Source: Magnetococcales bacterium (GTDB taxonomy: Bacteria > Pseudomonadota > Magnetococcia > Magnetococcales > UBA8363). Taken from it: DNA of 64,000 nt. The notes under the pieces are model-generated. The model saw nothing but the letters and a program-made list of their open reading frames with translations, made no database searches and was not told the DNA's origin. Below are positions 1,465 through 62,522 of the stretch, piece after piece. The stretch lies in the NCBI GenBank assembly GCA_015228925.1, contig JADGCQ010000005.1, forward strand, positions 3,394 to 67,393, given 5' to 3'. A program made the translations under genes and the position numbers. The stretch's first letter is position 1, and each line of letters opens with the position of its first letter.

Positions 1465-1530
1465 GCGCACACTTAAACCGATATTCCATGGAATGAATAC
1501 TTTTTCTTGACGTTCCCTGCGGCATCATCG

Positions 1531-1561
1531 GGAAGGGGGAGAGGGAAACCTCCCCCCCCCC
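1531..1561. terminator. G-rich/C-rich hairpin ending in a C10 run, between convergent genes
   Basis: gggaagggggagaggg-aaa-cctcccccccccc read directly. It lies between the stops of the 325..1464 (+) and 1587..1820 (-) genes. Confidence 0.3.
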
Positions 1562-1586
1562 GGCACTTCAATCCAAGTCCGACGGC

Positions 1587-1820
1587 TCACATCATCGACA
1601 TTCTACGATCCTGGCCGCTGATCCGCTCCAACAGGCGTTCCAGTTCACACGCCAGTTGAGAATTCATATCAATATGGCGGGTATAGACCTGCTGCATCAG
1701 GAATTCAGCCTTCGACCTGTTGTCGATGTATTCGCTGTAAAGTCCCTCACGTATATCGCTGTTCATCGGTCCAGACTCCCAAAAGTTCCGTGGTGCTGCT
1801 TCGTTGATTTTTGTGTTCAT
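1587..1820 (-). CDS. Small hypothetical protein (77 aa)
   Basis: ORF with ATG at 1820 preceded by aaaggtgagg (SD-like). No recognisable domain. Confidence 0.45.
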   Translation of the reverse strand: MNTKINEAAPRNFWESGPMNSDIREGLYSEYIDNRSKAEFLMQQVYTRHIDMNSQLACELERLLERISGQDRRMSMM

Positions 1821-2377
1821 TTTCCTCACCTTTCAACATCACTTGTCCAATTCAATGGATCTTTACCCCATGCCCAATAACAAGCATAAAACAGGCCATA
1901 TTGACGAACATCAAACCGTCATCCACTTTGGCCCGAACAAGGGGTGAAAACACTCAGGTTCCCGGGCACGCCGTCCCAAATGGCTCCGTGGGAAATCCGA
2001 TCAAACCGTACCAAGAATGCTTTGATACCGTCAAAAATTTACCCTATGTCTAAATTCTGACACTGGCCACCCATGCCAACCGGCACCATGTCGGGATCTG
2101 CCCGAATGCCCAACAGGTTGCCTTTATTTTAATCATTTTGGATTGATGGTTCGGTATTCTGGTCGTTGAGTCGCAAAAGCATCATTGTCCCATTTAACCC
2201 GCCACGCAAAACACCCGATACAACGGCTAAAGATCATCAACTTGGCAAAAGACTATCGACATGATAGTTTGTCACGATGATCGTCCACCAGACACATATG
2301 AATGTTGTTTTTTTTATTGGGAAGATTCCTCTCCACAACAAAACAATCCTGAAGGATCTATAAAGGGATACCTTTGA

Positions 2378-4924
2378 TTGGAACTGCTCTACACCATTGC
2401 GGATATCATCAGAAATGACGATGGATTGACAATCCTGTGCATTGTCGTTGCGTTCCTCGCCGTATTTCTGACACTGGAAATCACAGCCCGCTTATCCAAT
2501 AACCATGATGCCAATCGGAAACGTAAAACACGTTATCTGGGCTCCTTGGTTTTGGGGCTGGGGTTATGGATCATCCACCAAGTTGCGCTCTCTCTACAAA
2601 TCCCCACCGGATCATACACCACCCATCTCCACCATTTTGAACACCCTATAGACATCGCTCTCCCCCTGGGAACATCCCTGATACTCGCGCTGTGCGTCGC
2701 GAATACCCTCCTCTCCTTCCCCAGGAAAACAAGCCATCTGCTCTGGGCCAGCTTTTGTCTGGGGCTGGGGTTGCCTGGCGTCGTCGCTGTCGGACTGTTC
2801 TCACATCACGCCAGCGGACTCTGGTTCTTCAATGTCATGGAAACGGCATTCGCTTTCGTCTGCACCACCGCCGCCATTTTCAGTGCTTTTTATCTGGTTT
2901 TAAAGCTTCCAGCCCACTATGCCCTCTCCACCTCCGCACGCTACCTGCTTGCGACCAATCTTCTAACCTTTAGCCTGTTCCTCGGCAATATCCTCTTCAT
3001 CAACGCCTTTTACACCCTCGCCCCGGCGATGCAAACCGAGGAGAATGCGGCTATCGGACATAGCATATTGAGCTTTATAGTCATTATAATTCTTTTTATC
3101 GTTGTTTTATCTCACTATTGGCATCTCGACCAAGAGCGCGTCTCTTTGGAGAAGAGCGTCCATGACCTGCAATTGTCGCAGGAAATCGCCCATATGGGCC
3201 ACTGGGAATGGGATCTGGTAACCGACGACATCACTTGGTCAAACCGATTGGCCGTCATCTTTTCAATGCCATCGGATAGAAATCGTGCCGATCTTTTTTC
3301 AAACACCATTCATCCCAATGATCGTGTGGATGTGATGCAATGCCGCAGGCAAGCACGTCTGGACCCCCTTGGCCAATGGTCCATCCGCTATCGCATCATC
3401 TGTCCCAACGGTGAAATACGGATGATTCGCGAACATGGACGCACCTTAACCAACCTACACGGCACACCAACCCGGCTGTTGGCGACTGTCGCCAATGTGA
3501 CCCATATTTATGATATGGAAAAACGGGAGGAACGGGTGATGCAGTCCCAGATTGCCCTGAGCGCGTTATTGGAAACGGGGCTGGAACCCTTGGACTTGGA
3601 AAAACAGCTTAATGTTGCACTCCATATCATTCTTACCGTCCCTTGGCTGTCGATCAAATATCAGGGATCCATCTTTCTCGTCGATCCCGATTCGGGCGAT
3701 TTGCGACTGGCCTCCCATATCGGCCTGTCGGAGCAGCAAGTGCGTTTGTGCAGCCACGTCAAGCGCGGCCATTGTCTTTGCGGAAAAGCACTAGCACAAC
3801 AAAAAATTGTCTTCACCTCACATCTCGATGAAAATCACCCGATCACCTATCCTGGCATAGTCCCTCATGGGCACTATTGTGTCCCCATCGTTTCCCGCAG
3901 CCGGGTCGTCGGAGTACTCAATCTCTATGTTCCCCACGGCTATGAAAAAAATTCCGAGGAGGACGCCTTTTTAACCACCATTTCCAACACCCTGGCGGGG
4001 TTAATCGATTTACGCCATACCCAGGCCCGGTTGGCCAACAAACAGGAATTCATTACCACCATTCTGCGCACCGCACCATCCCTGGTCCTCGTATTAGACC
4101 AAGATGGACGGGTTATCCTGTTCAACCATGCCTGTCAAACACTGACGGGATACACGGAAGAGGAGGTGGTAGGACGCGAAATTTGGAAGTTTTTGATTCC
4201 CCCTTCCGAAGTCGTCGAATTAAAGGAAAAACTTCAAGGTCTTTACCCGGGAGGGAGGCCGCTCGACCACGAAGGGCACTGGTTGACCATCCATGGGGAT
4301 GCCCCCCTGATTGCCTGGTCGAGTACCGCCATCGCCACCACCGAAAATACCCAACGCCATATCGTCGGCACTGGCGTGGATATTTCGCAAAAGCGGCGCG
4401 CAGAACAACAACTGCGCTTTTTGGCCAGTCATGATTCACTCACCGGGTTGCCCAACCGATCCCAATTTATGGAACATTTGATCGTCAGCCTAGCCCAAGC
4501 CAAAAGAAGTGGACGCCATCTGGCGGTGTTATTTTTGGATTTGGATCGTTTTAAAACGGTCAACGACACCCTCGGACACGAAATTGGTGATCGACTGCTC
4601 ACCGCAGCCGCCTCGCGCATCCGCAGCAGCGTCCGAGAAATGGATGTAGTCGCCCGCATTGGTGGTGATGAATTTACCGTCCTTATGACGGGGCTTGTGG
4701 ATATCGACCCCATCGCCACCATCGCCAAGAAAATTATCACCAACATTGATAAAATTTTTGAAATCGATCAACACCCCTGTCACATCGGTGTCAGCGTCGG
4801 CATCGGTCTGTTCCCCGAACATGGCGACGATCCCCAGACCCTGCTGAAAAAAGCGGACCAGGCTATGTATGCCGTCAAAGAGTCCGGTCGCAACAGCTTT
4901 AAAATTTGGGATGAAACGTGTTGA
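2378..4924 (+). CDS. Membrane sensor diguanylate cyclase: multi-TM N-terminus, PAS, GAF, PAS, GGDEF
   Basis: About 7 hydrophobic segments at the N-terminus. GAF-like CxC-containing middle region. Intact GGDEF (RIGGDEFTVLM) with RxxD I-site (REMD) five residues upstream. TTG start as given by the ORF track. Confidence 0.85.
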   Translation: MELLYTIADIIRNDDGLTILCIVVAFLAVFLTLEITARLSNNHDANRKRKTRYLGSLVLGLGLWIIHQVALSLQIPTGSYTTHLHHFEHPIDIALPLGTSLILALCVANTLLSFPRKTSHLLWASFCLGLGLPGVVAVGLFSHHASGLWFFNVMETAFAFVCTTAAIFSAFYLVLKLPAHYALSTSARYLLATNLLTFSLFLGNILFINAFYTLAPAMQTEENAAIGHSILSFIVIIILFIVVLSHYWHLDQERVSLEKSVHDLQLSQEIAHMGHWEWDLVTDDITWSNRLAVIFSMPSDRNRADLFSNTIHPNDRVDVMQCRRQARLDPLGQWSIRYRIICPNGEIRMIREHGRTLTNLHGTPTRLLATVANVTHIYDMEKREERVMQSQIALSALLETGLEPLDLEKQLNVALHIILTVPWLSIKYQGSIFLVDPDSGDLRLASHIGLSEQQVRLCSHVKRGHCLCGKALAQQKIVFTSHLDENHPITYPGIVPHGHYCVPIVSRSRVVGVLNLYVPHGYEKNSEEDAFLTTISNTLAGLIDLRHTQARLANKQEFITTILRTAPSLVLVLDQDGRVILFNHACQTLTGYTEEEVVGREIWKFLIPPSEVVELKEKLQGLYPGGRPLDHEGHWLTIHGDAPLIAWSSTAIATTENTQRHIVGTGVDISQKRRAEQQLRFLASHDSLTGLPNRSQFMEHLIVSLAQAKRSGRHLAVLFLDLDRFKTVNDTLGHEIGDRLLTAAASRIRSSVREMDVVARIGGDEFTVLMTGLVDIDPIATIAKKIITNIDKIFEIDQHPCHIGVSVGIGLFPEHGDDPQTLLKKADQAMYAVKESGRNSFKIWDETC

Positions 4925-4962
4925 TATGTGATTGAAGACATTTTCCCAATGAGGAGTAGAAT

Positions 4963-5163
4963 ATGGAACAACTGGATCGCATTACCCAGCAACCCGACGT
5001 GATGGGTGGCAAAGCGTGTATCCGTGGGATGCGCGTTACGGTCGGTATGGTTGTCGGCCAAATCGGTGCTGGCCATAGCATCGAGGAAATCCTTCTCGAC
5101 TATCCTTATATTGAGCGCGAAGACATTCTCCAGGCGTTACGTTACGCCGCATGGCGGACATAA
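4963..5163 (+). CDS. DUF433-family small protein (antitoxin-like HTH)
   Basis: 66 aa. PDVMGGKACIRGMRVTV ... ILLDYPYIEREDILQALRYA is the typical DUF433 pattern. Confidence 0.75.
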   Translation: MEQLDRITQQPDVMGGKACIRGMRVTVGMVVGQIGAGHSIEEILLDYPYIEREDILQALRYAAWRT

Positions 5164-5323
5164 CCGTTCATCCCCCCTTTCAGACTTTTGATTCAAATAT
5201 CAAAAAAAAAGATTCAAAAGCAAAAAATTGGAGCTTTTGATTTAAAGTCAAAACCCTGGGGAAAGAATTCCCCAGACCCCTTCTTTCTTTTCAATAGTTT
5301 TTTAGGGGAGGTCTGAACGGTTA
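5161..5323. repeat. MITE-like non-coding element, copy A (10-bp perfect terminal inverted repeats taaccgttca / tgaacggtta)
   Basis: The core agcttttgatttaaagtcaaaaccctgggg...ccccagacccct recurs at 53267-53330. The internal ctgggg/ccccag hairpin and the TIRs were read directly. Confidence 0.6.
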
Positions 5324-5345
5324 CGGAGAAACCTGCCACGATCCC

Positions 5346-6728
5346 TTAACCCTTGACCGATTCATTCTGAGTGATGAACGTATGATAGGGAAGATCCAGA
5401 ATATGGTGAAAGGTGATGATGATGGCTACCATGAAGGTGATCAGACAGGCGGCGAAATATCCAAAACCATAATAGGGAAAGCCAAGATTCATCGATAACA
5501 GCGAGAAGACAAAGTTGGATAGCAGGAAGATGAAACTAACCTGTAATGCCTTGCGGCGACAATCAAAATAGGACAAAAGAATATTCATGAACAAAATACA
5601 GACGTGGTAAAATGCCCCCAACACCCCCAGCCGATACATCCCCATCTGTTTAAAGTTGATGCCAAACCAGGTAAACAGATGCGGTGCCATCAAAATAGCC
5701 AACAGGCTGATCCCCCCCTGGAGAATCAAAAAATTACGCCCGCTCACATGCACCGCTTCGATCAGTTGTTTATGATTGTCCCGGATGACCTGAAAATTGG
5801 CGTGTTTTTGAATGTCTCGGTAAAATTTTAAATAATGTTCATAAAATCGAGTCTCCATGCTCAACACAAAGGAGGCCATGGAGGGGACGATGGAAAGATA
5901 GGCGAGAAACATGGCACTATCATAGTTGGAATAGGAGAGAAATCCCCCGGCCACCACATCTCTTTCTGGACAAAACCACATGATCCATTTGTCCACCCAA
6001 GCGGCCAAATTAAACGTCAAACCGACCAGGGCCAAATCCCAATACCGCCTGAAATAGGGGAGAAATCCGAAAAAGTTTTTGGCTTCATAGGGATATTCGG
6101 CAAAGACCCGGGCGATGATCCCAAACAGGATGATGGCCAACCCCGCATTGAAACCAAAAAACATCCCCACCACCCCCAGATCCTTGGCCAAAAAAGGGTT
6201 GGAAATGCCACCAAACGCCATGCCGATAAGAAAAATACGGATAACCATTTTATAATCTTTGAGTGCGGTGATAAAAATGGTCACCAACCAGACACCATTG
6301 ATCAAAAAATAATTGATGAAGGCACTGAGTGCCGTCATAAACTCAATATCGACATAGAAAAAATAAAATAAAAAAGCCAGCGGAAACTGTATCGCATAGA
6401 TCAAAATCAATCCCCCCAGGAGGGCACCGGGGGCTTTTTCCACCTCTTTCAGAAAAATCAAATCGGAGATATACCGGGTAAGCACCATCACAATGGGGCC
6501 GGATATCACCAAAGAAAATGAAAAATTATAAATGATAGCAATGCGAAAGGTAATCTGTTGCTCGACGGTGGTAAAATACGATCCCAGAGCCACAATCCCC
6601 GTGAGGGCCAGGATGGTGAACAACCAGGGGCCGGTCGCCACCAATGCCGAATAACCAAATCCGCTCAAAAGGCCAATCAGATTGTCCTTGGTCGTCAGAT
6701 TACGCAATACAAAACCGATACCGGCCAT
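5346..6728 (-). CDS. pelG: Pel polysaccharide biosynthesis membrane protein PelG
   Basis: 460 aa polytopic membrane protein starting MAGIGFVLRNL, typical of PelG. It is the last gene of the pel-ordered operon. Confidence 0.8.
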   Translation of the reverse strand: MAGIGFVLRNLTTKDNLIGLLSGFGYSALVATGPWLFTILALTGIVALGSYFTTVEQQITFRIAIIYNFSFSLVISGPIVMVLTRYISDLIFLKEVEKAPGALLGGLILIYAIQFPLAFLFYFFYVDIEFMTALSAFINYFLINGVWLVTIFITALKDYKMVIRIFLIGMAFGGISNPFLAKDLGVVGMFFGFNAGLAIILFGIIARVFAEYPYEAKNFFGFLPYFRRYWDLALVGLTFNLAAWVDKWIMWFCPERDVVAGGFLSYSNYDSAMFLAYLSIVPSMASFVLSMETRFYEHYLKFYRDIQKHANFQVIRDNHKQLIEAVHVSGRNFLILQGGISLLAILMAPHLFTWFGINFKQMGMYRLGVLGAFYHVCILFMNILLSYFDCRRKALQVSFIFLLSNFVFSLLSMNLGFPYYGFGYFAACLITFMVAIIITFHHILDLPYHTFITQNESVKG

Positions 6729-6731
6729 GCT

Positions 6732-8309
6732 TTAAACCTCGTCGAGACGGCTGGTGGGACATTGGCATAAGCCGGTATAAATCTCCCGGTAGGTCTGTGT
6801 CAGGGTATCCTGGTCATAATAGGTTTTGACCCGTTGGCGAATCGCCTGGGAACATTGTTGCCACCAGGAGGGTTGCGTCAACAGACGTGCCAACTCCTGG
6901 GCCGTCTCGGATGGATTGGAAACCCGTGTCACCGCCCCCCCCGGCCCCAATGGGGGATCCTCCGTCGCCATCCCCAAGATCATCTCACGACAGGCCCCCA
7001 CATCGGTCGCCACCGTCGGAACACCGGCAGCCCCCGCCTCCAAAATCACCAAAGGTTGCCCCTCACTGATGCTGGTCAATACCAACACATCAATCTTGCC
7101 CAAATAGTCCACCAAGTTGACCCGACCCGTGAATACAACCATCTCCTGCAACCGAAAATGATGGATCAACCCCATGCACTCTTCATAATAGCCTTCATCC
7201 TCTTCCGTCGGTCCCATCACCAGAGCCATGGCTGTGGGAACCGCATGGCGCAGAATGGCGCACGCCTGAATGAATCCTTTGATATCTTTGATGGGGACCA
7301 CCCGGCCAATCAAGGCGATGGTGGGGGGTCTGCTCCCCTTGTCGGAGACCAAATTTTCAAACCGACGCCAAGCAATCCCATTGGGAATCACCCGCATTTT
7401 CTCAGGGTCAGCCCCATCCGCCTTCTGGAAATCCTGATTACCCCCATAGATGGTGATGATCTGATCACACGCCTGGTAGCAAGCTTTGGAATAAGCCTGG
7501 AACGCATGAATCCACAGTTTGCGGCAATCATTGCGATGCCCTTCCAACTGCAAACCGGCATGGGGATCCTCATAAAGCCAGTCGGCCATGGTGATTTCGA
7601 TACGACGTTCATTGGTGTAGATACCGTGTTCACAGACAATCACCGGACGATGGGTTTCCAGACGGGCACGGGCGAGAAAAAGACCAGCATAGCCCGTGGA
7701 CAGGGAATGATAGGTCTTGGCCTTGGGGAGGTCGGCAAGGAGAATGGTGAACAGATTTCCGGCAAGATAACGCCAAGTCCAAAAAAAGTCCAAAAACGGC
7801 CCCCCCGGCAACAACCGCTCATAAAGTTTCAACAAAAGCTCCCAGGCAGGTTTGGAATTCAATAACCACCCTGGATCCAGACGCCGTTCATAGGGTGCCA
7901 ACGTTGCAATGATCTGCCGCAACGCCGGCAGCCCCCCCTCCTCCTGAAATTGATACAACCCCTGTTCCAAAGCGGCAAACAAGGCGACCGGAAGTTCCCG
8001 ATACCCCAACTTCCCCTGGGGTGGGGCCAGGGTGACATGGGTGATCCCATGGACGTTGGCGGGAATCTCATAACGGGTCTGAAGTTTTTGATTGGGTGCC
8101 AAAAGGGTCAGAAGGTGAAAACGAAATTCGGGGAGACTCTGGATCAGTTCATGAACCCAACCCGAAACGCCACCCGCCACGTAAGGATATGTCCCCTCGA
8201 CAATCAGACAGATATCGATATCTTCCACACCCGACGCCGAAGCCTTGGATCTGCCGATCAAGGATTTGGACCATTTCCAAGCACCCGGATTCCATAAGCG
8301 GGTCATCAT
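6732..8309 (-). CDS. pelF: Pel glycosyltransferase PelF (GT4 family)
   Basis: DICLIVEGTYPYVAGGVSGWVHELI N-terminal motif and the C-terminal GT4 E-x7-E region (SEGQPLVILEAGAAGVP). The start was chosen at ATG 8309, which overlaps the pelE stop (ATGA). Confidence 0.9.
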   Translation of the reverse strand: MMTRLWNPGAWKWSKSLIGRSKASASGVEDIDICLIVEGTYPYVAGGVSGWVHELIQSLPEFRFHLLTLLAPNQKLQTRYEIPANVHGITHVTLAPPQGKLGYRELPVALFAALEQGLYQFQEEGGLPALRQIIATLAPYERRLDPGWLLNSKPAWELLLKLYERLLPGGPFLDFFWTWRYLAGNLFTILLADLPKAKTYHSLSTGYAGLFLARARLETHRPVIVCEHGIYTNERRIEITMADWLYEDPHAGLQLEGHRNDCRKLWIHAFQAYSKACYQACDQIITIYGGNQDFQKADGADPEKMRVIPNGIAWRRFENLVSDKGSRPPTIALIGRVVPIKDIKGFIQACAILRHAVPTAMALVMGPTEEDEGYYEECMGLIHHFRLQEMVVFTGRVNLVDYLGKIDVLVLTSISEGQPLVILEAGAAGVPTVATDVGACREMILGMATEDPPLGPGGAVTRVSNPSETAQELARLLTQPSWWQQCSQAIRQRVKTYYDQDTLTQTYREIYTGLCQCPTSRLDEV

Positions 8310-26031: not shown

Positions 26032-28647
26032 CTAAGATACCCCCTTGGCATGCAAAAATGATCCATAACTCCGATCTTCCTTGAGGAGATGTTGGACCAG
26101 CCACGTTTGAAGAAATGAGAGAAAATCAAGGTAATTGACATATTTACCTTCAAAGACCGTTTCCTGAAGTGCCTGCACCTGTCGCGCCATGGTTCGATGA
26201 ACATCCCGGTGATGATCCACATTGGGAAAGCCATGCTGAACCAACAATTGTTCCTCAGCATCAAAATGATACTGAGTGTACACCACCAGACTTTCCATGG
26301 CCGCTATCAGCTCATCCCGCCGTTGACCGAAACGGATGATATTCAAAATATTATTCGCGATTCCAAATAATTCCTTGTGGTGCGCATCCATGCTGGCGAT
26401 TCCGGTACCAAACTCGTCACGCCAATAAAAAACCTTGCTGGAATCGCTACTGTAGATGGATTGCATCGCCCTGGTCTTATACATTTCAAACAACTTCCAC
26501 CGTACAATCGGGATGTCCGCGAGCAGGTCGCCACGAATTTGTAAAATTTCCGTCTCCTCCTCGGCCATGACATGGTACAGGCACGGAACACCAAAAATAG
26601 CCCCCTCCTCACCAAAAAAATGACCCACTTCCAAGACATCCAAACTATCGGTACCAATTAATCGCCGCATTTTTCCCCGACGAATCACATGGAGAAACCC
26701 CGAATCCTGACAAGGAACCGTACTGCCAGAGGCAATCGTTTTATAAACCAGATTGTCGATAATCCCCGCCATCACCGGATGGGACAACCCCTCACAAAGA
26801 AGATCAATAGATTCAAGAAATGCACGAATGGTCGCCGTGCGCTCAATCTTACCCATCAGATCATTTTTTTGAATGATCTGCCGGTAAAGACCTGCGGAAA
26901 TCTTGAGTGCGCTGACATAACTGGCTGCCCTGAAAGTCCACGGAGAAGGGGTCTGTTTGAGTGCAGAATCCTCCCCCAACAAGGTACCAGCCATCAGGCG
27001 ACTCAACCGATTTTCACCGGAAAATATTTTTTCCACCAACCCCGTTAAAATCAACAGGACATCCTCACAACAATCCCCCTCCTTTAAAATGATCGCTCCC
27101 GGATTGATGGCAACCACCTCGTTGTTCAGCAGCATACGCAGATGATGGAACGGAACCCTGGAAAAATGGCTTTGTAAAAATTGAAAAGCCAGACGTCGGG
27201 CAAAATCGTTCTGTCCCGAAATCAAAACATCACTGATACCAAAAGGTGCCGATGACCCAATCGCTTTTTCACTGGGGGTCAGATTGACCGAAGTATGTGC
27301 CAAAACAATGCGTTCGGACTTGTCGTTACGAAAATCTTCAGCCGCCCCGTGGATCATTCCACCGCCAACGTCAAGCTTCTTCAAATTCAATGGGACAAGA
27401 TACTCTTTCTTGACCTTCTCAAAAAATGCCCGTTTGACTCCAGGGACATCATCATCCTCGGTGACCATCCCTTCCAGAACATTCAGAGAAACAATGTCGG
27501 CAAAATGGCCGTATGTTTTATATCCCGAAGACCATAGAGTTCTGAACAAAAAATTTGTTGTTTCCAAAGGGTGCGGGGAAAACACCGGCATGACTTCCAA
27601 CCCCTGGATATCGGTCCACTGGTCCATGGGCAGGTCATGACAATCGAAGAAATCCTGAAATTGATTTTCCTCCATGGAGAGCAGTGCCGCCAATTTCTTT
27701 TCGACCGTCAGTCGGACCAAGGCTGCGGCATAGTATTTGATCTTGTGCCCGGAACGCATCAGGGAGGTGATGCCGGCGAAATGATCATCATGGGCATGGG
27801 TATGGAAAATCCCTTCGATTTCGTTGATGCCGACGCCAAGTGCCGTCAGATTAAAAAAAAGATTCGGTCCCGCATCGATCAAATAGATTTTACCTTGAAA
27901 CAACACAATACTCGACATGGAGGGGCGATTGACATCCCACCCATCACCGTCTCCTGAGTGGATCACGGAAAAATAATCCCTGGGAATGCTCTGGAATCCC
28001 AGGGGATAAGGGGGGTCATAATGGTCTTCCCCCTGAAGGTTCAGATCGACGGTTACGGTGTCCCCGTGATAAGAGATTTCAAACTGATTGACGGCGATGC
28101 GTTCGATGGTGACACCGTTACGAATTTCCCTTTTTTCCATCCCCAGAACACAACTGTCCAACAAAAGACTGGACGGTTTGATCTGCCCAAAAGCAAACCG
28201 CTTTTTCAAGCGCATCATTTGCTTGGCCGTTTCTTCGTCAACACCACCCTGTCGGATTTCCTCAAGGGAGACCAATCCATAATTACCCCGGAAAATGTAC
28301 TGCATCTGTGCCTGGACTTGCTCACCCAATCCGATGAGCAAGGGCTTCTGCCCAGTATTATTGGGGTGTTTGGGGATGATCAACCCCTGCTTGTAGAGCA
28401 TTTGCAGGACGGGAAACTCCGCCAAGTTGGAAAATTCTCCGTTTTGAATCATGACATCGGAGAGGAGAATGGCATTGGGTCCGGTTTCGCACAGAACCCC
28501 TTCAACCTCACGTTGAATGATCAATCCGCGTTTCATCAGATGCTTCACGCAATCCGCAGGACATCCGCAGATGATCTGCAATTTAGCATCAGGGATTTCA
28601 ACCCAAAAAACGCCTTTAATAACTGGAACCTTAATGATCTTGTCCAT
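26032..28647 (-). CDS. Multidomain protein: unknown N-terminal domain, MBL-fold hydrolase, 2 cNMP-binding domains, hemerythrin
   Basis: HxHxDH motif in IFHTHAHDDHFAG. Two CAP_ED-like segments (ILKEGDCCEDVLLILTG...LLGEDSAL and GHFFGEEGAIFG). C-terminal hemerythrin ligand pattern MDAHHKELF / YHFDAEEQLL / HHRDVHRTM / WLVQHLLKEDRSY. Confidence 0.8.
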   Translation of the reverse strand: MDKIIKVPVIKGVFWVEIPDAKLQIICGCPADCVKHLMKRGLIIQREVEGVLCETGPNAILLSDVMIQNGEFSNLAEFPVLQMLYKQGLIIPKHPNNTGQKPLLIGLGEQVQAQMQYIFRGNYGLVSLEEIRQGGVDEETAKQMMRLKKRFAFGQIKPSSLLLDSCVLGMEKREIRNGVTIERIAVNQFEISYHGDTVTVDLNLQGEDHYDPPYPLGFQSIPRDYFSVIHSGDGDGWDVNRPSMSSIVLFQGKIYLIDAGPNLFFNLTALGVGINEIEGIFHTHAHDDHFAGITSLMRSGHKIKYYAAALVRLTVEKKLAALLSMEENQFQDFFDCHDLPMDQWTDIQGLEVMPVFSPHPLETTNFLFRTLWSSGYKTYGHFADIVSLNVLEGMVTEDDDVPGVKRAFFEKVKKEYLVPLNLKKLDVGGGMIHGAAEDFRNDKSERIVLAHTSVNLTPSEKAIGSSAPFGISDVLISGQNDFARRLAFQFLQSHFSRVPFHHLRMLLNNEVVAINPGAIILKEGDCCEDVLLILTGLVEKIFSGENRLSRLMAGTLLGEDSALKQTPSPWTFRAASYVSALKISAGLYRQIIQKNDLMGKIERTATIRAFLESIDLLCEGLSHPVMAGIIDNLVYKTIASGSTVPCQDSGFLHVIRRGKMRRLIGTDSLDVLEVGHFFGEEGAIFGVPCLYHVMAEEETEILQIRGDLLADIPIVRWKLFEMYKTRAMQSIYSSDSSKVFYWRDEFGTGIASMDAHHKELFGIANNILNIIRFGQRRDELIAAMESLVVYTQYHFDAEEQLLVQHGFPNVDHHRDVHRTMARQVQALQETVFEGKYVNYLDFLSFLQTWLVQHLLKEDRSYGSFLHAKGVS

Positions 28648-57289: not shown

Positions 57290-57856
57290 TCACGCCGCCA
57301 AGTTGGTGCTGGTGGATTGCACGTTGTTGGCTGTGAGAGGGGCTAGGTTGTGGCGTTCGATATCAAACAGGATGGTCGAAAAGAGAAACAGGTCAAAAGG
57401 TGGACGAGGACCGCCTGTTGGCAGGCTGGGGAGGCAATGGCGTTGGATATGACATTGGCGTAAGGCACGAAAAATGTGAAATTCATAGCCCCAACCATCT
57501 TCCTGGGACGGAGGATAGGAAAACCCGAAGTTTTCAAGGATTTCCAAGCGGGTTGCGTCGATGGAATTTGGATTTTTCTTAACGATAACACGGAGAAAGG
57601 CAATAAGGGTATTGATGGCACATTGGAACGCAAGAATTTCGTTGGAGAAAAAAGCATATTTTGACCATTCGTCTCCAGTTATCGATTGCACACGTTGGAA
57701 AACACCCTTGTGGAGAAAGGCCCCGGCGACGCAGGCTCCTAATTTGTGCCGATCCAGATATTTGGGATGCAGGGAATCGTCACCAGTGGCGGCGGCGATT
57801 TTTTGCATTTGGGTTTGCATGTGAGAGCGCAAATGCACAAAGGTGTTTGCCACCAT
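57290..57856 (-). CDS. Hypothetical protein (188 aa). The same frame continues upstream through one TAA to an ATG at 58000
   Basis: ORF from the track. Hand translation of 57857-58000 gives MTKTALVANVTDPKEWFHNYWD*SFSHEVQLVLARGSGEIALVDNARD in frame. Confidence 0.4.
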   Translation of the reverse strand: MVANTFVHLRSHMQTQMQKIAAATGDDSLHPKYLDRHKLGACVAGAFLHKGVFQRVQSITGDEWSKYAFFSNEILAFQCAINTLIAFLRVIVKKNPNSIDATRLEILENFGFSYPPSQEDGWGYEFHIFRALRQCHIQRHCLPSLPTGGPRPPFDLFLFSTILFDIERHNLAPLTANNVQSTSTNLAA

Positions 57857-58233
57857 GTCCCGTGCATTATCAACAAGGGCAATCTCGCCGGAACCCCTGG
57901 CAAGAACGAGCTGAACCTCATGGGAAAAACTTTAATCCCAATAGTTATGGAACCACTCTTTAGGATCGGTCACATTGGCGACTAATGCCGTCTTGGTCAT
58001 GCGATGACACCTTTGCGTTGCTATGGTGGGGATCCGATAAAAGCGCGGGAGGCTAAACCAAAACAACCCTGCTGTCAACCATCAGAGTACGAACGTAAGC
58101 GAGGCTGCGACGGAAATCTCGATAAGAGGAAAAACGCCAGAGCCGCAACGGAGCGGCTCCTGGGTTCGTGCGATGAACGGCTAGCAAGAGAACAACGGGA
58201 CCAACGATCTGCTACCGATCAAACGTGCAGTGA

Positions 58234-58455
58234 TCAGGCGGGGGGACGGATTTTGGCTCGCGCTGGAGGAACCTCATACATGTCCACCTCCGTATTATCG
58301 AAGGGGAGTACCTTTTCATAAAATTCCTTTTCCGTGACTTTCTCATCCCACATCGGTGAAGAGGCTACCTTATGCGACCACTCTGGATTAGACCTGGGAT
58401 TAGACTTGGCACTAGGAAGTGCCACGGGGTTGGATTCTGAGTGATTGTGATTCAT
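58234..58455 (-). CDS. Small hypothetical protein (73 aa; His/Ser/Pro-rich N-terminus, acidic C-terminus)
   Basis: A strong SD (gggaggagg) lies immediately upstream of the ATG. No domain was recognised. Confidence 0.5.
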   Translation of the reverse strand: MNHNHSESNPVALPSAKSNPRSNPEWSHKVASSPMWDEKVTEKEFYEKVLPFDNTEVDMYEVPPARAKIRPPA

Positions 58456-58970
58456 AACCTCCTCCCTTTGTGATGTGAACCTTATTGCCCCACGTCCCGT
58501 GATACGTCGGCAAAATGTTCCTTATTGTCTCACCCTTGACGCCGCCGTCACAGACCGTTGCGTGACGCATGGCACCACCTGACTGTTGCATCAATATATT
58601 GATCTAACTAACAAAAAACACAAACCCCTGAATGATACCGCCTTTAGAACTCAACGATAAAGGTACCATATGTGCCTCATTGTGCAAGGATCAAACCAGC
58701 GTCCCAAAAATTGGCCAAAGCTTTTCCGAACGTGCCGTGGCATCTGTGAGTGAGACCACAACAAACTCACCCAACATCCATGCTACTCTCATTGAACCGC
58801 AAAATCGATGGGTAAGTGTGTGTTTGTTCATTTCGATAAAATATATGAAAATTATCTTTTAAAATAGCCTATTAGTAGTGTATATAGAATAATTTATGAA
58901 CATTGGTGCCTAAATTGAGGTACTCTGACTGGCTTAAGGTTTGATAGTATTTCTAACTGGAGAGGTTCAT

Positions 58971-59885
58971 ATGATTGGCAATTCTCAAGGCTCGGTTTCC
59001 TACAGACTGAGGTTGTTCCTTGCGGTTGACCTTCAAAACTCAACGGCATTGAAATTCCGGTTCTTCTGCGAAGGGATGTCCTATTGGCGATCATTTCTCG
59101 CAGGCTTCTATCGAGAGTTTGCGACCGTTTTTCTCGAATCTTTGGATGGTATCGGAAAAAAGCCTGGGGTGGGTTCATTGGTCCCGGTTCAGATATGGAA
59201 AAGCAGTGGTGATGAGGTGGTCATGGTGGTTGATCTCAGGCATCGAAGACATCTGAAATATTATCTCAAGGCGTTTCGCGATGGTGTACGGCGTTATAAC
59301 GCGACACTGGCTGAAAAAGACCCAGAGATTTTTCGAGTGGGTGGTGAGACATTGCGGATGCGGTTGAAACCCAGGGCATGGTTGGCCGATTTTCCCATCA
59401 ACAATATGGAATTCTCCACACCGCATGGTACGTTGGAACGCAGTGATGACAATAAAATGCCGTGGAGTTTGGAAATTCCCGATTATTTTGGACCTGCAAT
59501 GGATGTGGGATTTCGTCTGGGATCCCTGGCCACGAGCCGCAAGTTTGTATTGTCGGTGGAGACGGTGTGGGCCTTGGTGGGAGAAGAGGATGAGACAATC
59601 AAAGATTTTCGTCTTTTCATGGAAGGGCGTGTCCCCTTGAAGGGGGTCCGTGGTGGTGAATCCTACCCGGTTTTTTGGCTTGATCTGGAAAAAGAGATAC
59701 CGGATGAAGATGCCTGGACGGGGTTGCGTCCTTTTGCGTCGAATACGGATTATGAAAAAATAGAGAAATTGTGTCGCGGTTTTATTGGGATGGACAAAAA
59801 TCCATTGCTCAGGCCAATATTTATCGATGATGAAAAATTGCCTCCTGCATTTTCTGATACCATGTATCGTATACAGGAGGTGTAG
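58971..59885 (+). CDS. Stand-alone divergent class III nucleotidyl-cyclase-homology (palm) domain protein with an unknown C-terminal region of about 100 aa
   Basis: ATG 58971 follows a ggagagg SD. LRLFLAVDLQNSTALKF resembles vLFaDIvGFTal. IWKSSGDEVVMVV resembles KtiGDavMavF. DYFGPAMDVGFRLGSLA resembles dyfGdtVNlAaRleS.A. Confidence 0.55.
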   Translation: MIGNSQGSVSYRLRLFLAVDLQNSTALKFRFFCEGMSYWRSFLAGFYREFATVFLESLDGIGKKPGVGSLVPVQIWKSSGDEVVMVVDLRHRRHLKYYLKAFRDGVRRYNATLAEKDPEIFRVGGETLRMRLKPRAWLADFPINNMEFSTPHGTLERSDDNKMPWSLEIPDYFGPAMDVGFRLGSLATSRKFVLSVETVWALVGEEDETIKDFRLFMEGRVPLKGVRGGESYPVFWLDLEKEIPDEDAWTGLRPFASNTDYEKIEKLCRGFIGMDKNPLLRPIFIDDEKLPPAFSDTMYRIQEV

Positions 59886-59904
59886 TATCCGAGACCGCAT
59901 TCCT

Positions 59905-60447
59905 TTAGGAAATGGTACTGACTTCGGGCAGACGACTTCCAAGCCGACAGGGTGTACAAACAACGATGCATTCGCTGTCAAACAAAGCCATTTTTCCGCG
60001 CAAGACATCCCGGAACCGTGTTCTTAACGTCGCAAAATGTTGCCGTTTGAACCAGTCTGGAACATCCAACACGATCACGATGCAGATCGGACAAATGGGT
60101 GTGTGGAATTCCTCCGGCAGATCGGCACGGAATTTTGTTCCTTTATCGGTTGGGAGCCAACAGGCCGAAAACATGAGCAGAGAGTCCCATACCTTGGGGG
60201 CCGTTTTATCAACCAGATACTCTACGAACTGCTCAGCAGTGACGTTTTTCTCTTTGGCCTGTTCCCTCTCATCCGAATAAGCTTTGGCCTCCAGCATGAA
60301 TAACTTGCCGTCACGCAACCAACAAAAATCCATCTCTTTGACATGCTGACCTGAAATTTTCTTATAGGCAGCCAAATTCTGAAAACGGAAATGGGGTATG
60401 CCGGTCAAATCGACCCGAACGTTCGATTCCTCATAAATGGCCACCAC
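59905..60447 (-). CDS. Putative PD-(D/E)xK-fold nuclease (180 aa)
   Basis: E6/E7 ... D40 ... E53-A-K55 (KEMDFCWLRDGKLFMLEAKAY) has the spacing typical of restriction-endonuclease-like cores. Its start abuts the ATPase stop. Confidence 0.45.
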   Translation of the reverse strand: MVAIYEESNVRVDLTGIPHFRFQNLAAYKKISGQHVKEMDFCWLRDGKLFMLEAKAYSDEREQAKEKNVTAEQFVEYLVDKTAPKVWDSLLMFSACWLPTDKGTKFRADLPEEFHTPICPICIVIVLDVPDWFKRQHFATLRTRFRDVLRGKMALFDSECIVVCTPCRLGSRLPEVSTIS

Positions 60448-61548
60448 CTATTCTCCCCAATCCAGCCGGATGTCTTCGTTGAGCAGATATTCCGATTGAG
60501 TAAGTATGGGGTTGTCAGGCATCTCATTGCGTAAATCGTGGAAGGTGGCAGTAACCCCCGTTGGAGATTTCCGCAGGTCCACCAAAGACGTTTTTGTTTG
60601 TGTACGGCGAGCCAGTTGTTCAATGCGTTTAAGAAAAAAATAACTGTGGGTGGCGGCGTAGACCTGAATGCCCGCTTGGCTCAGGGCAAAAAGAATGTCC
60701 GCCAACGCAATGATCGCTTGCGGATGCAGATTGACCTCCGGTTCGTCAACCAGGAGGACGCTCCCCTGGGTCAAGCTACGGTTTAAAATCAAACGACTCA
60801 GGATACCAATTTTCTTAAATCCCTCCGATGTCAGTGACATGGAGTAGGTTTTGCCTTCTCTTTGATAGACAAATTTGGATCCGACTTCGGCTATCTCTCC
60901 GTTATGTAATGTTTTTTTAATTGTAGTGAGAATATTCTCCAGTTTTGGTTCAATTTTCCCGTAGGTGGGGGCGGCACGAAAATCATCGATCAAATCCAGG
61001 TAGGTGTCATCAAAACCCGCAATTTCCATCCTTCTTCGGGTTGCCTCAATGGCGTGCATGGCGGTAAGAATTTCTTTGGGTGGAAAAAAAACAACCGGTC
61101 CGATCGGATTAACCGCAAATGAGATCTCATTAAAAGTTTCTGGTATAACCGATACGGAAAAGGAGAATTCACCGCCTCCCACACATGCCTTCATTTTCAA
61201 GGATTCTTGGCCACCACGGATCAAGTGTGCATGATTGAAATCTTTCGGTTGCATCGTCCATGACAACTTGTTGCGGAAACAATCCACCCATGCTTCTGGT
61301 TGTGGTCCGTCTCTTTTCTGAACGAACAGGTTAATACTACGCCCTACGGAATAGAGCATTTTCAGCAGATGCGTTTTGCCCGTATCATTTTCGCCGATGA
61401 TGACGTTCATGGCGGAATGGTCCAGCCAGTCCAGTTGGGCAAACGATGTAAAATTGGTCAGTTCCAAGCTGGAAAACACGCATCCGCTCCCTCGATTGCC
61501 ACCCCTGTCCGACGGGTTGCACGGCGTCGGAAGGGGTGGGTCGATCAT
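60448..61548 (-). CDS. ABC/SMC-like AAA ATPase (AAA_15/AAA_21 type)
   Basis: Walker A GENDTGKT. Signature-like LTSEG. Walker B VLLVDEPEVNLHP. H-loop ATHS. An alternative GTG start at 61479 has a gagggag SD. Confidence 0.75.
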   Translation of the reverse strand: MIDPPLPTPCNPSDRGGNRGSGCVFSSLELTNFTSFAQLDWLDHSAMNVIIGENDTGKTHLLKMLYSVGRSINLFVQKRDGPQPEAWVDCFRNKLSWTMQPKDFNHAHLIRGGQESLKMKACVGGGEFSFSVSVIPETFNEISFAVNPIGPVVFFPPKEILTAMHAIEATRRRMEIAGFDDTYLDLIDDFRAAPTYGKIEPKLENILTTIKKTLHNGEIAEVGSKFVYQREGKTYSMSLTSEGFKKIGILSRLILNRSLTQGSVLLVDEPEVNLHPQAIIALADILFALSQAGIQVYAATHSYFFLKRIEQLARRTQTKTSLVDLRKSPTGVTATFHDLRNEMPDNPILTQSEYLLNEDIRLDWGE

Positions 61549-62522
61549 TATTTCGACTTCTCTTTGATCTCTTTATCGAGGACTTCCTTAAAGGCGTCCA
61601 AAGGCACCGCCCCGACCAGCTTCAATCCGTTGATGAAAAACGTTGGGGTTCCCGTGATTCCCAATTGTTGTCCTTCGGCGGAGTCCGAAGCAATGCGAGA
61701 GGCGTGACGACCACTGGTGAGGCACTCATCAAATTTGGCGGTATCCAATTTCAGTTTTGTGGCCAATTCTTTCAAGGCATCCACGGCCAAAGATTGAGAA
61801 TCGGCAAACAATGCATCATGAAAATCCCAAAACTTGCTCTGCTCGTTGGCGCACATGGCCGCCTCCGAGGCTTTCGGGGCGAGCTTATGGAACGGCAGCG
61901 GATAGTGCCGGAATACAAATCGCAGTTTATCACCATAGGTTTCCTTCAATTTACCCAGTACCGCTTGCGCTTTGCGGCAATAGGGACACTCAAAATCGGA
62001 AAACTCAATGATGGTGACCGGGGCGTTGGCCGGACCGCGACTCAAATCTTGGGGGCCGGTGACGGTGTAGCGCGGCTCTTCCAATAAAATTTCTACCTTG
62101 TACCGGCTGGCCAAATCTTCATGGTACTTGGTCTTGGCCAATTTCAGTGCCTGATTTTCCAAAAATGAGTGAACCTTTTCCTTGATGCCGGGATCGTTGG
62201 CTGGAATCTTGGCCTTGTTGGCCTCCATAAACTGCTTGACCTGATCCTCGGTAACCGGTACCAAATATTTGGCCGCCATCTTGTCCACAACCTGATCCTT
62301 GGGAATGTTGTTGGCCTTGGATTCAAGTTCCAACAAATGGTCGAGGACTTCCGCTTCAATCTTTTCAATCCGAAGATCATGGACCTGCCCAGAAATCATG
62401 GTGTCCACCTTGCCAAGATCAAGGGTCCAATCCCCCACACGGGCTGCCGGTTCTCCCTGGACCTGAATGGGCAACAACAGTACAAACAAACTTGAAAGAA
62501 GCAAGCCTTTAATTTTACTCAT
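61548..62522 (-). CDS. DsbA-family thiol:disulfide oxidoreductase with an N-terminal chaperone-like extension
   Basis: Signal peptide MSKIKGLLLSSLFVLLLPIQVQG. Thioredoxin motif FSDFECPYCRKA. Start at ATG 62522 with an aagga SD. Confidence 0.8.
   Translation of the reverse strand: MSKIKGLLLSSLFVLLLPIQVQGEPAARVGDWTLDLGKVDTMISGQVHDLRIEKIEAEVLDHLLELESKANNIPKDQVVDKMAAKYLVPVTEDQVKQFMEANKAKIPANDPGIKEKVHSFLENQALKLAKTKYHEDLASRYKVEILLEEPRYTVTGPQDLSRGPANAPVTIIEFSDFECPYCRKAQAVLGKLKETYGDKLRFVFRHYPLPFHKLAPKASEAAMCANEQSKFWDFHDALFADSQSLAVDALKELATKLKLDTAKFDECLTSGRHASRIASDSAEGQQLGITGTPTFFINGLKLVGAVPLDAFKEVLDKEIKEKSK

Follow-up and report, generated by a model that had tools for sequence, protein, structure and literature searches.

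A probable HEC-02 anti-phage gene pair, encoding an ABC-type ATPase and a NERD-like PD-(D/E)xK protein, in a Magnetococcales bacterium

The window, by which we mean the whole stretch of 64,000 nucleotides analyzed from a Magnetococcales bacterium, holds two abutting open reading frames on its minus strand, with an ATPase frame (A) followed by a smaller frame (B), as read directly from the nucleotides. The features of this pair are given below; residue numbers of the ATPase follow the 366-aa ORF.

59905..60447, minus strand: predicted HEC-02B, a small NERD-like PD-(D/E)xK protein of 180 aa from GTG 60447
60283..60330, minus strand: putative catalytic core D40-x12-E53-x-K55 (D40 at 60328-60330, E53 at 60289-60291, K55 at 60283-60285)
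60448..60458, minus strand: coupling junction, with SD GGGGAG at 60453-60458 and the ATPase stop TAG at 60448-60450, then the GTG of the small gene
60448..61479, minus strand: predicted HEC-02A, an ABC-type ATPase of 343 aa from GTG 61479, stop TAG 60448-60450 included
60646..60651, minus strand: H-loop T300-H301 (ATHS), with H301 at 60646-60648
60742..60759, minus strand: Walker B motif VLLVDE, V264-E269, followed by PEVNLHP
60820..60834, minus strand: ABC signature-like motif LTSEG, L239-G243
61111..61251, minus strand: hypervariable insert of the ATPase, residues 100-146 (47 residues)
61372..61395, minus strand: Walker A motif (P-loop) GENDTGKT, G52-T59, with K58 at 61375-61377
61480..61548, minus strand: probable 69-nt spacer, counted into the ATPase by the mechanical ORF and carrying SD GAGGGAG at 61487-61493

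The mechanical ATPase ORF occupies 60448..61548 and encodes 366 aa from an ATG at 61548, which shares one base with the stop codon of the gene upstream (TAATG). An earlier note on this DNA had taken this length and overlap as the gene structure, while pointing to GTG 61479, with its good SD sequence, as an alternative start. The alternative is the correct one, and both the length of 366 aa and the TAATG overlap are artefacts of the ORF call. In the alignment, every homologous ATPase starts at the residue that corresponds to V24 (‘MFSSLELTNF’ in an 80%-identical relative, for example), and none of them has the 23 extra N-terminal residues of the longer ORF. The HEC-02A profile match begins at residue 25, and the SD GAGGGAG lies 7 nt upstream of GTG 61479. 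Because the homologues, the profile and the SD sequence all fit this start, the ATPase gene is placed at 60448..61479, 69 nt from the upstream gene; the equivalent gap in L001, a syntenic relative from a second Magnetococcales MAG, is 70 nt. The 69-nt stretch itself most likely represents an untranslated intergenic spacer. The upstream gene had been called dsbA-like, in agreement with its Pfam matches (Thioredoxin_4, 5.7e-33; DSBA, 5.5e-26). A promoter scan of 59600-61900 revealed no promoter-like site inside the 69-nt gap, and the promoter and terminator counts over this interval (3 vs 2.2 ± 1.4 and 7 vs 3.4 ± 2.2 in shuffled sequence) were within about 1.6 sd of expectation; no RNA family of Rfam was detected between 56500 and 62000 at E ≤ 1. 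At the other end of the ATPase gene its stop codon directly abuts the start of the small gene, TAG then GTG, as had been noticed before. A second possible start of the small gene, GTG 60444, gives a product of 179 aa, as in GenBank entry HQL75_02370. Gene calls in loci L001, L004, L005, L006, L010 and L011 likewise show a junction of 3-6 nt between A and B. The start codon of the ATPase can thus be corrected in annotation, and correct annotation is the main value of the present analysis.

The ATPase displays Walker A, signature-like, Walker B with catalytic glutamate, and H-loop motifs in that order, which bears out the complete AAA_15/AAA_21-type motif set described in the earlier note. The Walker A motif takes the form GEN(D/A)TGK(T/S)H in homologues, and the residues invariant in the alignment are E242, G243 and K246 at the signature-like motif, D268, E269, P270 and E271 at Walker B, and T300 and H301 in the H-loop. 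The experimentally tested ATPase from Dickeya has LVAEG at the position of LTSEG. Matches to the Pfam families AAA_21 (5.6e-18) and AAA_15 (2.7e-15) are both above the Pfam cutoffs, and the strongest family matches of the protein are all to defence ATPases. There are also weak matches to SMC_N and to the RecF N-terminal family. These favor an alternative in which the pair serves the Magnetococcales in DNA repair or recombination, as a housekeeping unit, with an ABC ATPase and a nuclease acting in the manner of RecF/RecN or SbcCD. We consider this very unlikely, as the RecF and SMC matches cover the P-loop region only while the best matches are all defence ATPases; the genomic evidence on this alternative is given with the distribution of the pair below.

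The D-x12-E-x-K core proposed earlier for the 180-aa protein can be read from its sequence as D40, E53 and K55. Among 135 diverged relatives D40 is kept in 134, E53 in 133 (with Asp in the other two) and K55 in 107 (with Arg in a further eight); the replacement of K55 in about 15% of these relatives counts against the assignment of the pair made below. E7 (129), E38 (129), K85 (126) and D88 (117) are conserved as well, and D40, E53 and K85 come close to invariance. An AlphaFold2 (AF2) model of the protein (pLDDT 89.3, pTM 0.86) places D40 just ahead of a strand formed by residues 41-45, and E53 and K55 within the strand 48-56. A non-nuclease fold had been named as the outcome that would count against the pair as described; the predicted topology appears compatible with PD-(D/E)xK proteins, with the motif in what would be the canonical strands. 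When the model was used as a Foldseek query, 38 of the top 50 hits carried PD-(D/E)xK domains by our own reading, although the hits are weak; they include Hjc, the arenavirus L endonuclease, Can2, Cdn1, McrC, Shedu, HamA, AF1548, HincII and R2. The D...ExK signature, placed on consecutive strands by the model, is shared with the NERD/PD-(D/E)xK superfamily, while the E7-S8 N-terminal hairpin, F20-R21-F22, and K85-x2-D88 on a long helix are conserved features specific to this family and go beyond NERD. The window protein has no match to Pfam NERD (PF08378), which is the only Pfam family matched repeatedly by its relatives (8 of 135, all sub-threshold, best E 0.005). A profile search of the PDB with the 135-member alignment gave no solved structure, even at E 10, and a search of the phage collection for HEC-02B yielded no homologue.

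Comparison with PADLOC profiles assigns both proteins to a known family. The ATPase matches the HEC-02A model PDLC04214 at E 1.5e-89 over residues 25-363 (profile positions 2-336 of 338), and a second HEC-02A model, PDLC04213, at 1.6e-64. The small protein matches the HEC-02B model PDLC04224 at E 4.5e-40 over residues 3-164 (profile positions 2-163 of 182), with weaker matches to three other HEC-02B models. HEC-02, or Hma-embedded candidate 02, consists of an ABC ATPase and a NERD-like PD-(D/E)xK protein; HEC-02A has the ABC fold and HEC-02B is structurally similar to NERD proteins (Payne et al., bioRxiv 2024, doi 10.1101/2024.01.29.577857). The HEC-02 pair of Dickeya dianthicola reduces phage plaquing by orders of magnitude in E. 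coli and needs both of its genes to do so; the protection reported is that of this single Dickeya representative in E. coli (doi 10.1101/2024.01.29.577857). With the Dickeya sequences taken from Table S2 of Payne et al., the window ATPase is 27% identical to HEC-02A of strain NCPPB 3534 over 301 aa (E 3e-34). The window HEC-02B is approximately 16% identical to its tested Dickeya counterpart; alignment of the family profile to that protein with hhalign gave a probability of 97.9% and an E of 4.7e-13 over 152 columns, with the MD and ExK motifs aligned.

The window pair has the layout of HEC-02, in which an ABC ATPase of about 340 aa precedes a NERD-like PD-(D/E)xK protein of some 170-185 aa, but it falls into a different HMM subfamily (PDLC04214/04224) from the tested Dickeya system. 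Embedding in another defence system was the criterion by which HEC-02 was discovered and is not needed for membership, and the window pair is not so embedded. From these sequence comparisons we consider it highly probable that the pair is a chromosomal HEC-02 anti-phage system of this Magnetococcales bacterium, made up of HEC-02A and a translationally coupled HEC-02B. On this basis the two products, entered in GenBank as ‘hypothetical proteins’ of a Magnetococcales MAG, can be labelled as a probable HEC-02 defence system. The earlier description of a two-gene module of ATPase and PD-(D/E)xK protein is supported as to architecture; the novelty that it implied is not, as the same architecture is that of HEC-02 and the PADLOC matches are near full length. 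HEC-02 models have been in PADLOC-DB v2 since 2023 (PDLC04213/04214 and PDLC04215-04229), and since the family is already catalogued and experimentally tested, the pair would be an ordinary member of it and not a new type of system.

The likeness to other defence systems lies mainly in the ATPase. PtuA-PtuB of Septu and retron Ec78 is also a two-gene combination of ABC ATPase and nuclease effector, and among solved structures PtuA is nearest in sequence to the window ATPase (E 5e-11; PADLOC PtuA 4.7e-12), followed by the Eco8 OLD nuclease, GajA, OLD and AriA; all of the solved structures related to it by sequence are ABC-type. The solved PtuA chains are nevertheless 456-551 residues long, compared with 343 for the window ATPase, and only segments of the ATPase core align. 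PtuB of Septu is an HNH nuclease and not a PD-(D/E)xK protein, and the small protein matches no HNH model of Pfam, PADLOC or NCBIfam. PARIS likewise joins an ABC ATPase, AriA, to a separate nuclease effector, and the ATPase is matched by PADLOC models of AriA at 1e-18 and by AriA structures at 7e-4; the PARIS effector AriB is a TOPRIM nuclease, whereas the window pair is without TOPRIM. Searches of Pfam and PADLOC found in neither protein a TOPRIM or DUF4276 domain, as expected, fused or adjacent, for PARIS, OLD, Gabija, AbiL and HEC-01, and the window pair matches these families in its ATPase core only. The cores of OLD and GajA are related to it (PADLOC Old 1.1e-16 and GajA ~1e-10 to 4e-11; PDB GajA 3e-6 and OLD 6e-6), as is the retron Eco8 effector of NCBIfam (7e-13, below cutoff), but in OLD, GajA and Eco8 a single polypeptide holds both the ATPase and a TOPRIM nuclease, while the window has a separate PD-(D/E)xK protein. 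Lamassu resembles the pair in that an ABC-superfamily ATPase controls a PD-(D/E)xK-type nuclease effector, and some of its LmuA effectors carry a Cap4-type PD-(D/E)xK nuclease. It differs in that LmuB is SMC-like with long coiled coils and that a third gene is often part of the system; no Lmu model is among the best 25 PADLOC matches. Lamassu has been counted among the ABC ATPase defences (doi 10.1101/2024.01.29.577857).

The earlier note had left it possible that the pair never co-occurs beyond its own genome or lineage. In every related locus examined the B gene follows the ATPase gene directly. The search with an alignment for further loci used a narrow one and covers the nearer members of the family; the pair is found in at least eight bacterial lineages, patchily and across phyla, with occurrences in Magnetococcales, Giesbergeria, Polaromonas, Parabeggiatoa, Thiomargarita, Syntrophales, Sorangium, Caldithrix, Saprospiraceae, Actinomycetota and Pseudanabaena. 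One relative lies within a BREX-2 operon of plasmid pPNAP01, another in L017 is found immediately upstream of BrxC (1604 bits), and a third in L006 neighbors PDC-S31 and a type I R-M system. In L011 the PDLC04214/04224 subfamily is in tandem with a second HEC-02 subtype (PDLC04213/04227), and several other related loci have housekeeping neighbors. In the window the pair is surrounded by dsbA, SRPBCC genes, trmL, cytochrome bc1 genes, sensor kinases and TamB, with dsbA on one side of it and a block of the cyclase-fold gene described below and trmL on the other; because these neighbors are housekeeping or signalling genes, a defence island in the window was rejected. Members of this HEC-02 subfamily can thus occur inside BREX-2 or by themselves in a housekeeping neighborhood.

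The immediate surroundings of the pair speak for its reading as a DNA repair unit. The window neighbors are housekeeping genes, L001 has the pair at the same chromosomal site (SRPBCC-SRPBCC-dsbA-[A-B]-trmL-bc1) with 80-85% identity, and a third Magnetococcales MAG has it near dsbA. Against this, Magnetococcus YQC-5 has the pair in a rearranged position with respect to dsbA and with a flanking ParE module, and outside the same-site loci of Magnetococcales the genomic contexts differ everywhere, with relatives inside BREX and beside R-M systems. The spread is patchy and crosses phyla, the small-protein family forms no more than 266 of the clusters made at 50% identity, in a set of 1.8 billion representatives, and the GC content of the pair is slightly lower than that of its flanks (~0.44-0.49 vs 0.50-0.55).

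The same survey bears on a toxin-antitoxin or addiction module, in which HEC-02B would be a toxic nuclease and the ATPase its antidote, so that the pair would be retained because cells that lose it die, and would have no dedicated role against phages in this organism. The tight coupling of the A and B genes, the presence of some relatives on large conjugative plasmids, and the ParE and HicB modules that adjoin the pair in other loci are all in keeping with this; so too are the names given to related proteins, with Pfam AAA_21 labelled ‘putative AbiEii toxin, Type IV TA system’ and PDB entries of PARIS AriA named ‘antitoxin’. The AbiEii label, however, is a family name and a naming artefact, and provides no evidence. 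Relatives sit inside BREX-2 operons, and the homologous Dickeya system lowers plaquing by orders of magnitude with both genes needed (doi 10.1101/2024.01.29.577857). An addiction module without an anti-phage role therefore seems unlikely to us, although an architecture of toxin-antitoxin type and abortive defence can both hold.

For the pair as an HEC-02 system, analogy suggests a likely division of labor between a sensor, the ATPase, and an effector, the nuclease, following the logic of other defences that combine an ABC ATPase with a nuclease: PARIS, Septu/retron PtuAB, Gabija/OLD and Lamassu. PARIS works by release on trigger and is the model for the mechanism proposed here. The ATPase would act as sensor and regulator, probably as an ABC-type nucleotide-sandwich dimer that binds HEC-02B and holds the nuclease in check. 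The variable insert of the ATPase would recognize a phage cue, and this cue, once coupled to the binding or hydrolysis of ATP, would release or activate HEC-02B, which may then cleave nucleic acid through a putative metal-dependent site formed by D40, E53 and K55; this cleavage would stop the phage from replicating, perhaps with the loss of the cell. The trigger of PARIS is Ocr (doi 10.1101/2024.01.29.577857), and neither its trigger nor its target is transferable to the window pair. The mechanism of HEC-02 is no more tractable from the window locus than from the Dickeya system, which has already been cloned.

The insert at residues 100-146 is a candidate specificity or sensor region of the ATPase. 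It is only 17% identical to the corresponding region of the closest relative, L001, with a 12-aa indel, compared with 94-98% identity in the flanking segments. Inserts of ABC ATPases have been proposed to set trigger specificity (Payne et al., bioRxiv 2024, doi 10.1101/2024.01.29.577857), and a region so sharply variable between close relatives is a reasonable place to look for it. A stronger interpretation is that the insert may be a swappable trigger-recognition cassette under diversifying selection, with the HEC-02 subfamily of the Magnetococcales type being an immune receptor that changes its specificity by cassette exchange. We think this less likely than not; if true, a swappable cassette would offer a direct handle on the trigger of HEC-02.

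A different form of control would apply if the pair belonged to a larger system that included the neighboring gene at 58971..59885, with a second messenger controlling the nuclease as in Pycsar or CBASS. This gene ends 19 nt from the HEC-02B stop codon, and its product has the fold of a class III cyclase with the metal-binding Asp residues conserved. It is convergent to the pair, its product has no PADLOC match, and HEC-02 works as a two-gene unit (doi 10.1101/2024.01.29.577857). The syntenic locus L001 has the pair without the cyclase, loci L013 and L014 have cyclase homologues without HEC-02, and no cyclase partner was present at the positions examined in 13 genome loci. The three-gene system was rejected on this distribution, and we regard it as scarcely credible. 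The convergent gene encodes an unannotated class III cyclase-fold protein that is unrelated to the pair.

The ATPase gene and the small gene behind it on the minus strand of the window form, by sequence, a distant but clear member of HEC-02. In PADLOC-DB the ATPase matches the HEC-02A model PDLC04214 (E 1.5e-89) over nearly the full length of the 338-position profile, and the small protein matches the HEC-02B model PDLC04224 (E 4.5e-40); we take these profile matches as decisive for the identity of the pair. HEC-02, an ABC ATPase with a NERD-like PD-(D/E)xK protein, is one of nine 'Hma-embedded candidates'; one representative, from Dickeya dianthicola NCPPB 3534 (their Table S2), lowered phage plaquing in E. 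coli, and both genes were needed for defence (Payne et al., bioRxiv 2024, doi 10.1101/2024.01.29.577857). Over 301 residues the window ATPase shares 27% identity with the Dickeya ATPase (E 3e-34), and the small-protein family profile aligns with the Dickeya HEC-02B at 97.9% probability (E 4.7e-13), with 'MD' and 'ExK' in register. The PADLOC models and the Dickeya homology therefore place the pair in a system type that is already known and tested. An earlier note had not recognised the small PD-(D/E)xK partner, implying novelty; the architecture is that of HEC-02, in PADLOC-DB since 2023 and with experimental support from 2024. The window pair's own subfamily is divergent, and the homologue tested for defence is a distant one.

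The two open reading frames abut on the minus strand, as had been claimed:

60448..61548, minus strand: mechanical ATPase ORF, 366 aa when read from an ATG overlapping the upstream gene's TAA by one base
59905..60447, minus strand: small-protein ORF, 180 aa
60450-60448 and 60447, minus strand: junction read from the sequence, ATPase stop TAG followed directly by GTG 60447; another GTG lies at 60444

A GGGGAG read 5 nt upstream of the small-gene start, together with the abutting TAG/GTG, fits translational coupling of the small gene to the ATPase. The upstream gene encodes a DsbA-like thioredoxin-fold protein (Pfam Thioredoxin_4, 5.7e-33; DSBA, 5.5e-26). When the ATPase is aligned with seven homologous ATPases, every complete homologue starts at the position of V24 (366-aa numbering), the residue encoded by GTG 61479; an 80%-identical relative reads 'MFSSLELTNF' where the window ATPase reads 'VFSSLELTNF'. 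The HEC-02A profile match begins at residue 25, GAGGGAG lies 7 nt upstream of this GTG, and the dsbA-ATPase gap is 70 nt in the syntenic Magnetococcales locus with the nearest relative (L001). The ATPase gene is therefore 60448..61479, encoding 343 aa. The GTG that the note had offered as an alternative start is thus the correct one, and its 366-aa length does not hold: the 23 extra N-terminal residues and the TAATG overlap with dsbA are ORF artefacts.

The ATPase belongs to AAA_21/AAA_15 (Pfam), and the complete motif set described earlier is intact in the sequence:

Residues 52-59, minus strand: Walker A, GENDTGKT
Residues 239-243, minus strand: signature-like motif, LTSEG
Residues 264-269, minus strand: Walker B, VLLVDE
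Residue H301, minus strand: H-loop

Its NCBIfam matches, all sub-threshold, are to defence ATPases (retron Eco8 effector, MAD3, PtuA), and its nearest solved relatives by sequence are PtuA, the Eco8 OLD nuclease, GajA, OLD and AriA. Residues 100-146 (window 61111-61251, minus strand) are hypervariable, with 17% identity and a 12-aa indel relative to L001 between flanks of 94-98%. Cassette exchange, or diversifying selection acting on a recognition surface, could account for this segment, and the segment fits a sensor role of the ATPase; ABC inserts have been suggested to set specificity (Payne et al., bioRxiv 2024, doi 10.1101/2024.01.29.577857). If the pair works like PARIS, Septu/PtuAB, OLD/Gabija and Lamassu, its ATPase would sense a phage cue and gate the nuclease effector.

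The small protein has no Pfam match, and its family profile found no solved structure by sequence. The D-x12-E-x-K core that had been proposed is present as D40, E53 and K55. Word-indexed searches returned 19 relatives, and an exhaustive profile search 266 clusters at 50% identity. The core is retained across the family, as are further residues.

Conservation of small-protein residues among 135 aligned members, all full-length and highly diverged
E7: 129/135
F20: 130/135
R21: 122/135
Y28: 124/135
E38: 129/135
D40: 134/135
E53: 133/135, plus 2 D
K55: 107/135, plus 8 R
K85: 126/135
D88: 117/135

With pLDDT 89.3 and pTM 0.86, the AlphaFold2 model is a confident one. It places D40 immediately ahead of strand 41-45 and both E53 and K55 within strand 48-56, followed by a long helix (71-95) bearing K85 and D88, then strand, helix, strand; this predicted topology is compatible with the canonical PD-(D/E)xK arrangement. 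Foldseek returned no significant PDB match (best E 0.17). By our reading, 38 of the 50 top weak matches are proteins with PD-(D/E)xK domains; the list includes Hjc, arenavirus L endonucleases, Can2, Cdn1, McrC, Shedu, HamA, AF1548, HincII and R2 endonuclease. NERD is the sole Pfam family matched by several members (8/135, all sub-threshold). The PD-(D/E)xK/NERD-like assignment is well supported by the motif, the residue conservation, the predicted topology and the comparison published for HEC-02B, though not independently proven by the fold search.

Linkage of the two genes is strict: the ATPase lies directly upstream in every locus encoding a small-protein relative, across metagenome and MAG loci (L001-L012), 13 genome loci and two plasmids. 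Co-occurrence extends beyond this lineage, in a patchy, cross-phylum distribution: Magnetococcales, Giesbergeria, Polaromonas, Parabeggiatoa, Thiomargarita, Syntrophales, a deltaproteobacterium, Actinomycetota, Sorangium, Caldithrix, Saprospiraceae and Pseudanabaena. A BREX-2 (pgl) operon on the Polaromonas naphthalenivorans plasmid pPNAP01 (NC_008757.1; L028 5930-7549) has the pair embedded within it, in the order pglW, an ATPase, pglX, the pair, a large hypothetical (PglY-like) gene, pglZ, brxD. In a Giesbergeria MAG (L017 201-5559) BrxC lies directly downstream (1604 bits). RefSeq labels these BREX-associated relatives only 'ATP-binding protein' and 'hypothetical protein'. At another locus (L006) the pair has a PDC-S31 candidate on one side and a type I R-M system on the other, and one metagenomic contig (L011 5342-8561) carries two HEC-02 pairs head to tail, of subtypes PDLC04213/04227 and PDLC04214/04224-like. 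ParE and HicB modules occur near the pair at two loci (L004, L005), and its neighbours in the window and many other loci are housekeeping genes. The minus-strand order in the window is SRPBCC, SRPBCC, dsbA, ATPase, small gene, with GC content slightly lower in the pair than in its flanks; Magnetococcales DCbin2 has the identical order, its small gene followed directly by trmL and bc1 genes. The tested homologue, the embedding of relatives in BREX and the patchy distribution disfavour both a pure addiction/TA module and a housekeeping repair unit.

Next to the pair lies a block of about 2.6 kb, which includes the convergent neighbour gene, encoding a cyclase-fold protein:

57290-59885: the block as a whole
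57290..57856, minus strand: 188-aa ORF
57860-58940: stretch with short ORFs only
58234..58455, minus strand: conserved small ORF
58941-59885, plus strand: ORF of a class III nucleotidyl-cyclase-fold protein, 304 aa; gene 58971..59885 (ATG 58971 probably the real start)

The cyclase-fold protein has no match in Pfam, NCBIfam or PADLOC. A Foldseek search with its AF2 model (pLDDT 75, pTM 0.82) yielded 74 matches in the PDB at E <= 1e-3; the 50 listed are all adenylyl/guanylyl cyclase catalytic domains. Searching 5.8 billion proteins turned up only about 10 homologues, those named being Magnetococcales or Magnetaquicoccaceae; they keep the metal-binding Asp motifs, and conserved motifs comprise F16, D20-x3-S24-T25, K28, W76-K77-x2-G80-D81-E82, G174-P-x2-D178-x-G180-F181-R182 and L223-K224-G225-V226. 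The block's small genes have no family match, and Rfam gave none. Window 57344-59885 is collinear with 1142-3866 of an unrelated contig carrying a cyclase homologue (L013) and partly with a second such locus (L014). The block is absent from syntenic L001, where the small gene abuts trmL, and it resembles a module that was inserted separately. A three-gene system of the pair with the cyclase-fold gene was rejected on distribution (L001 and the cyclase loci); the gene is without link to HEC-02.

Elsewhere in the window (26032-28647, minus strand) an 871-aa protein combines a metallo-beta-lactamase fold with cNMP-binding and hemerythrin domains, and L014 encodes at 4787-7504 a response-regulator/MBL (Apyc1-like, weak)/cNMP-binding protein; either could serve in cyclic-nucleotide signalling or degradation in these bacteria.

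In the database itself, PDLC04146, named 'HEC-02B', matches the ATPase (E 1.9e-39 in the window, 1.9e-57 for the L011 ATPase) rather than the small protein, and PDLC04145, named 'HEC-02A', weakly matches a small protein. The two labels look swapped, and this naming could mislead automated calls.
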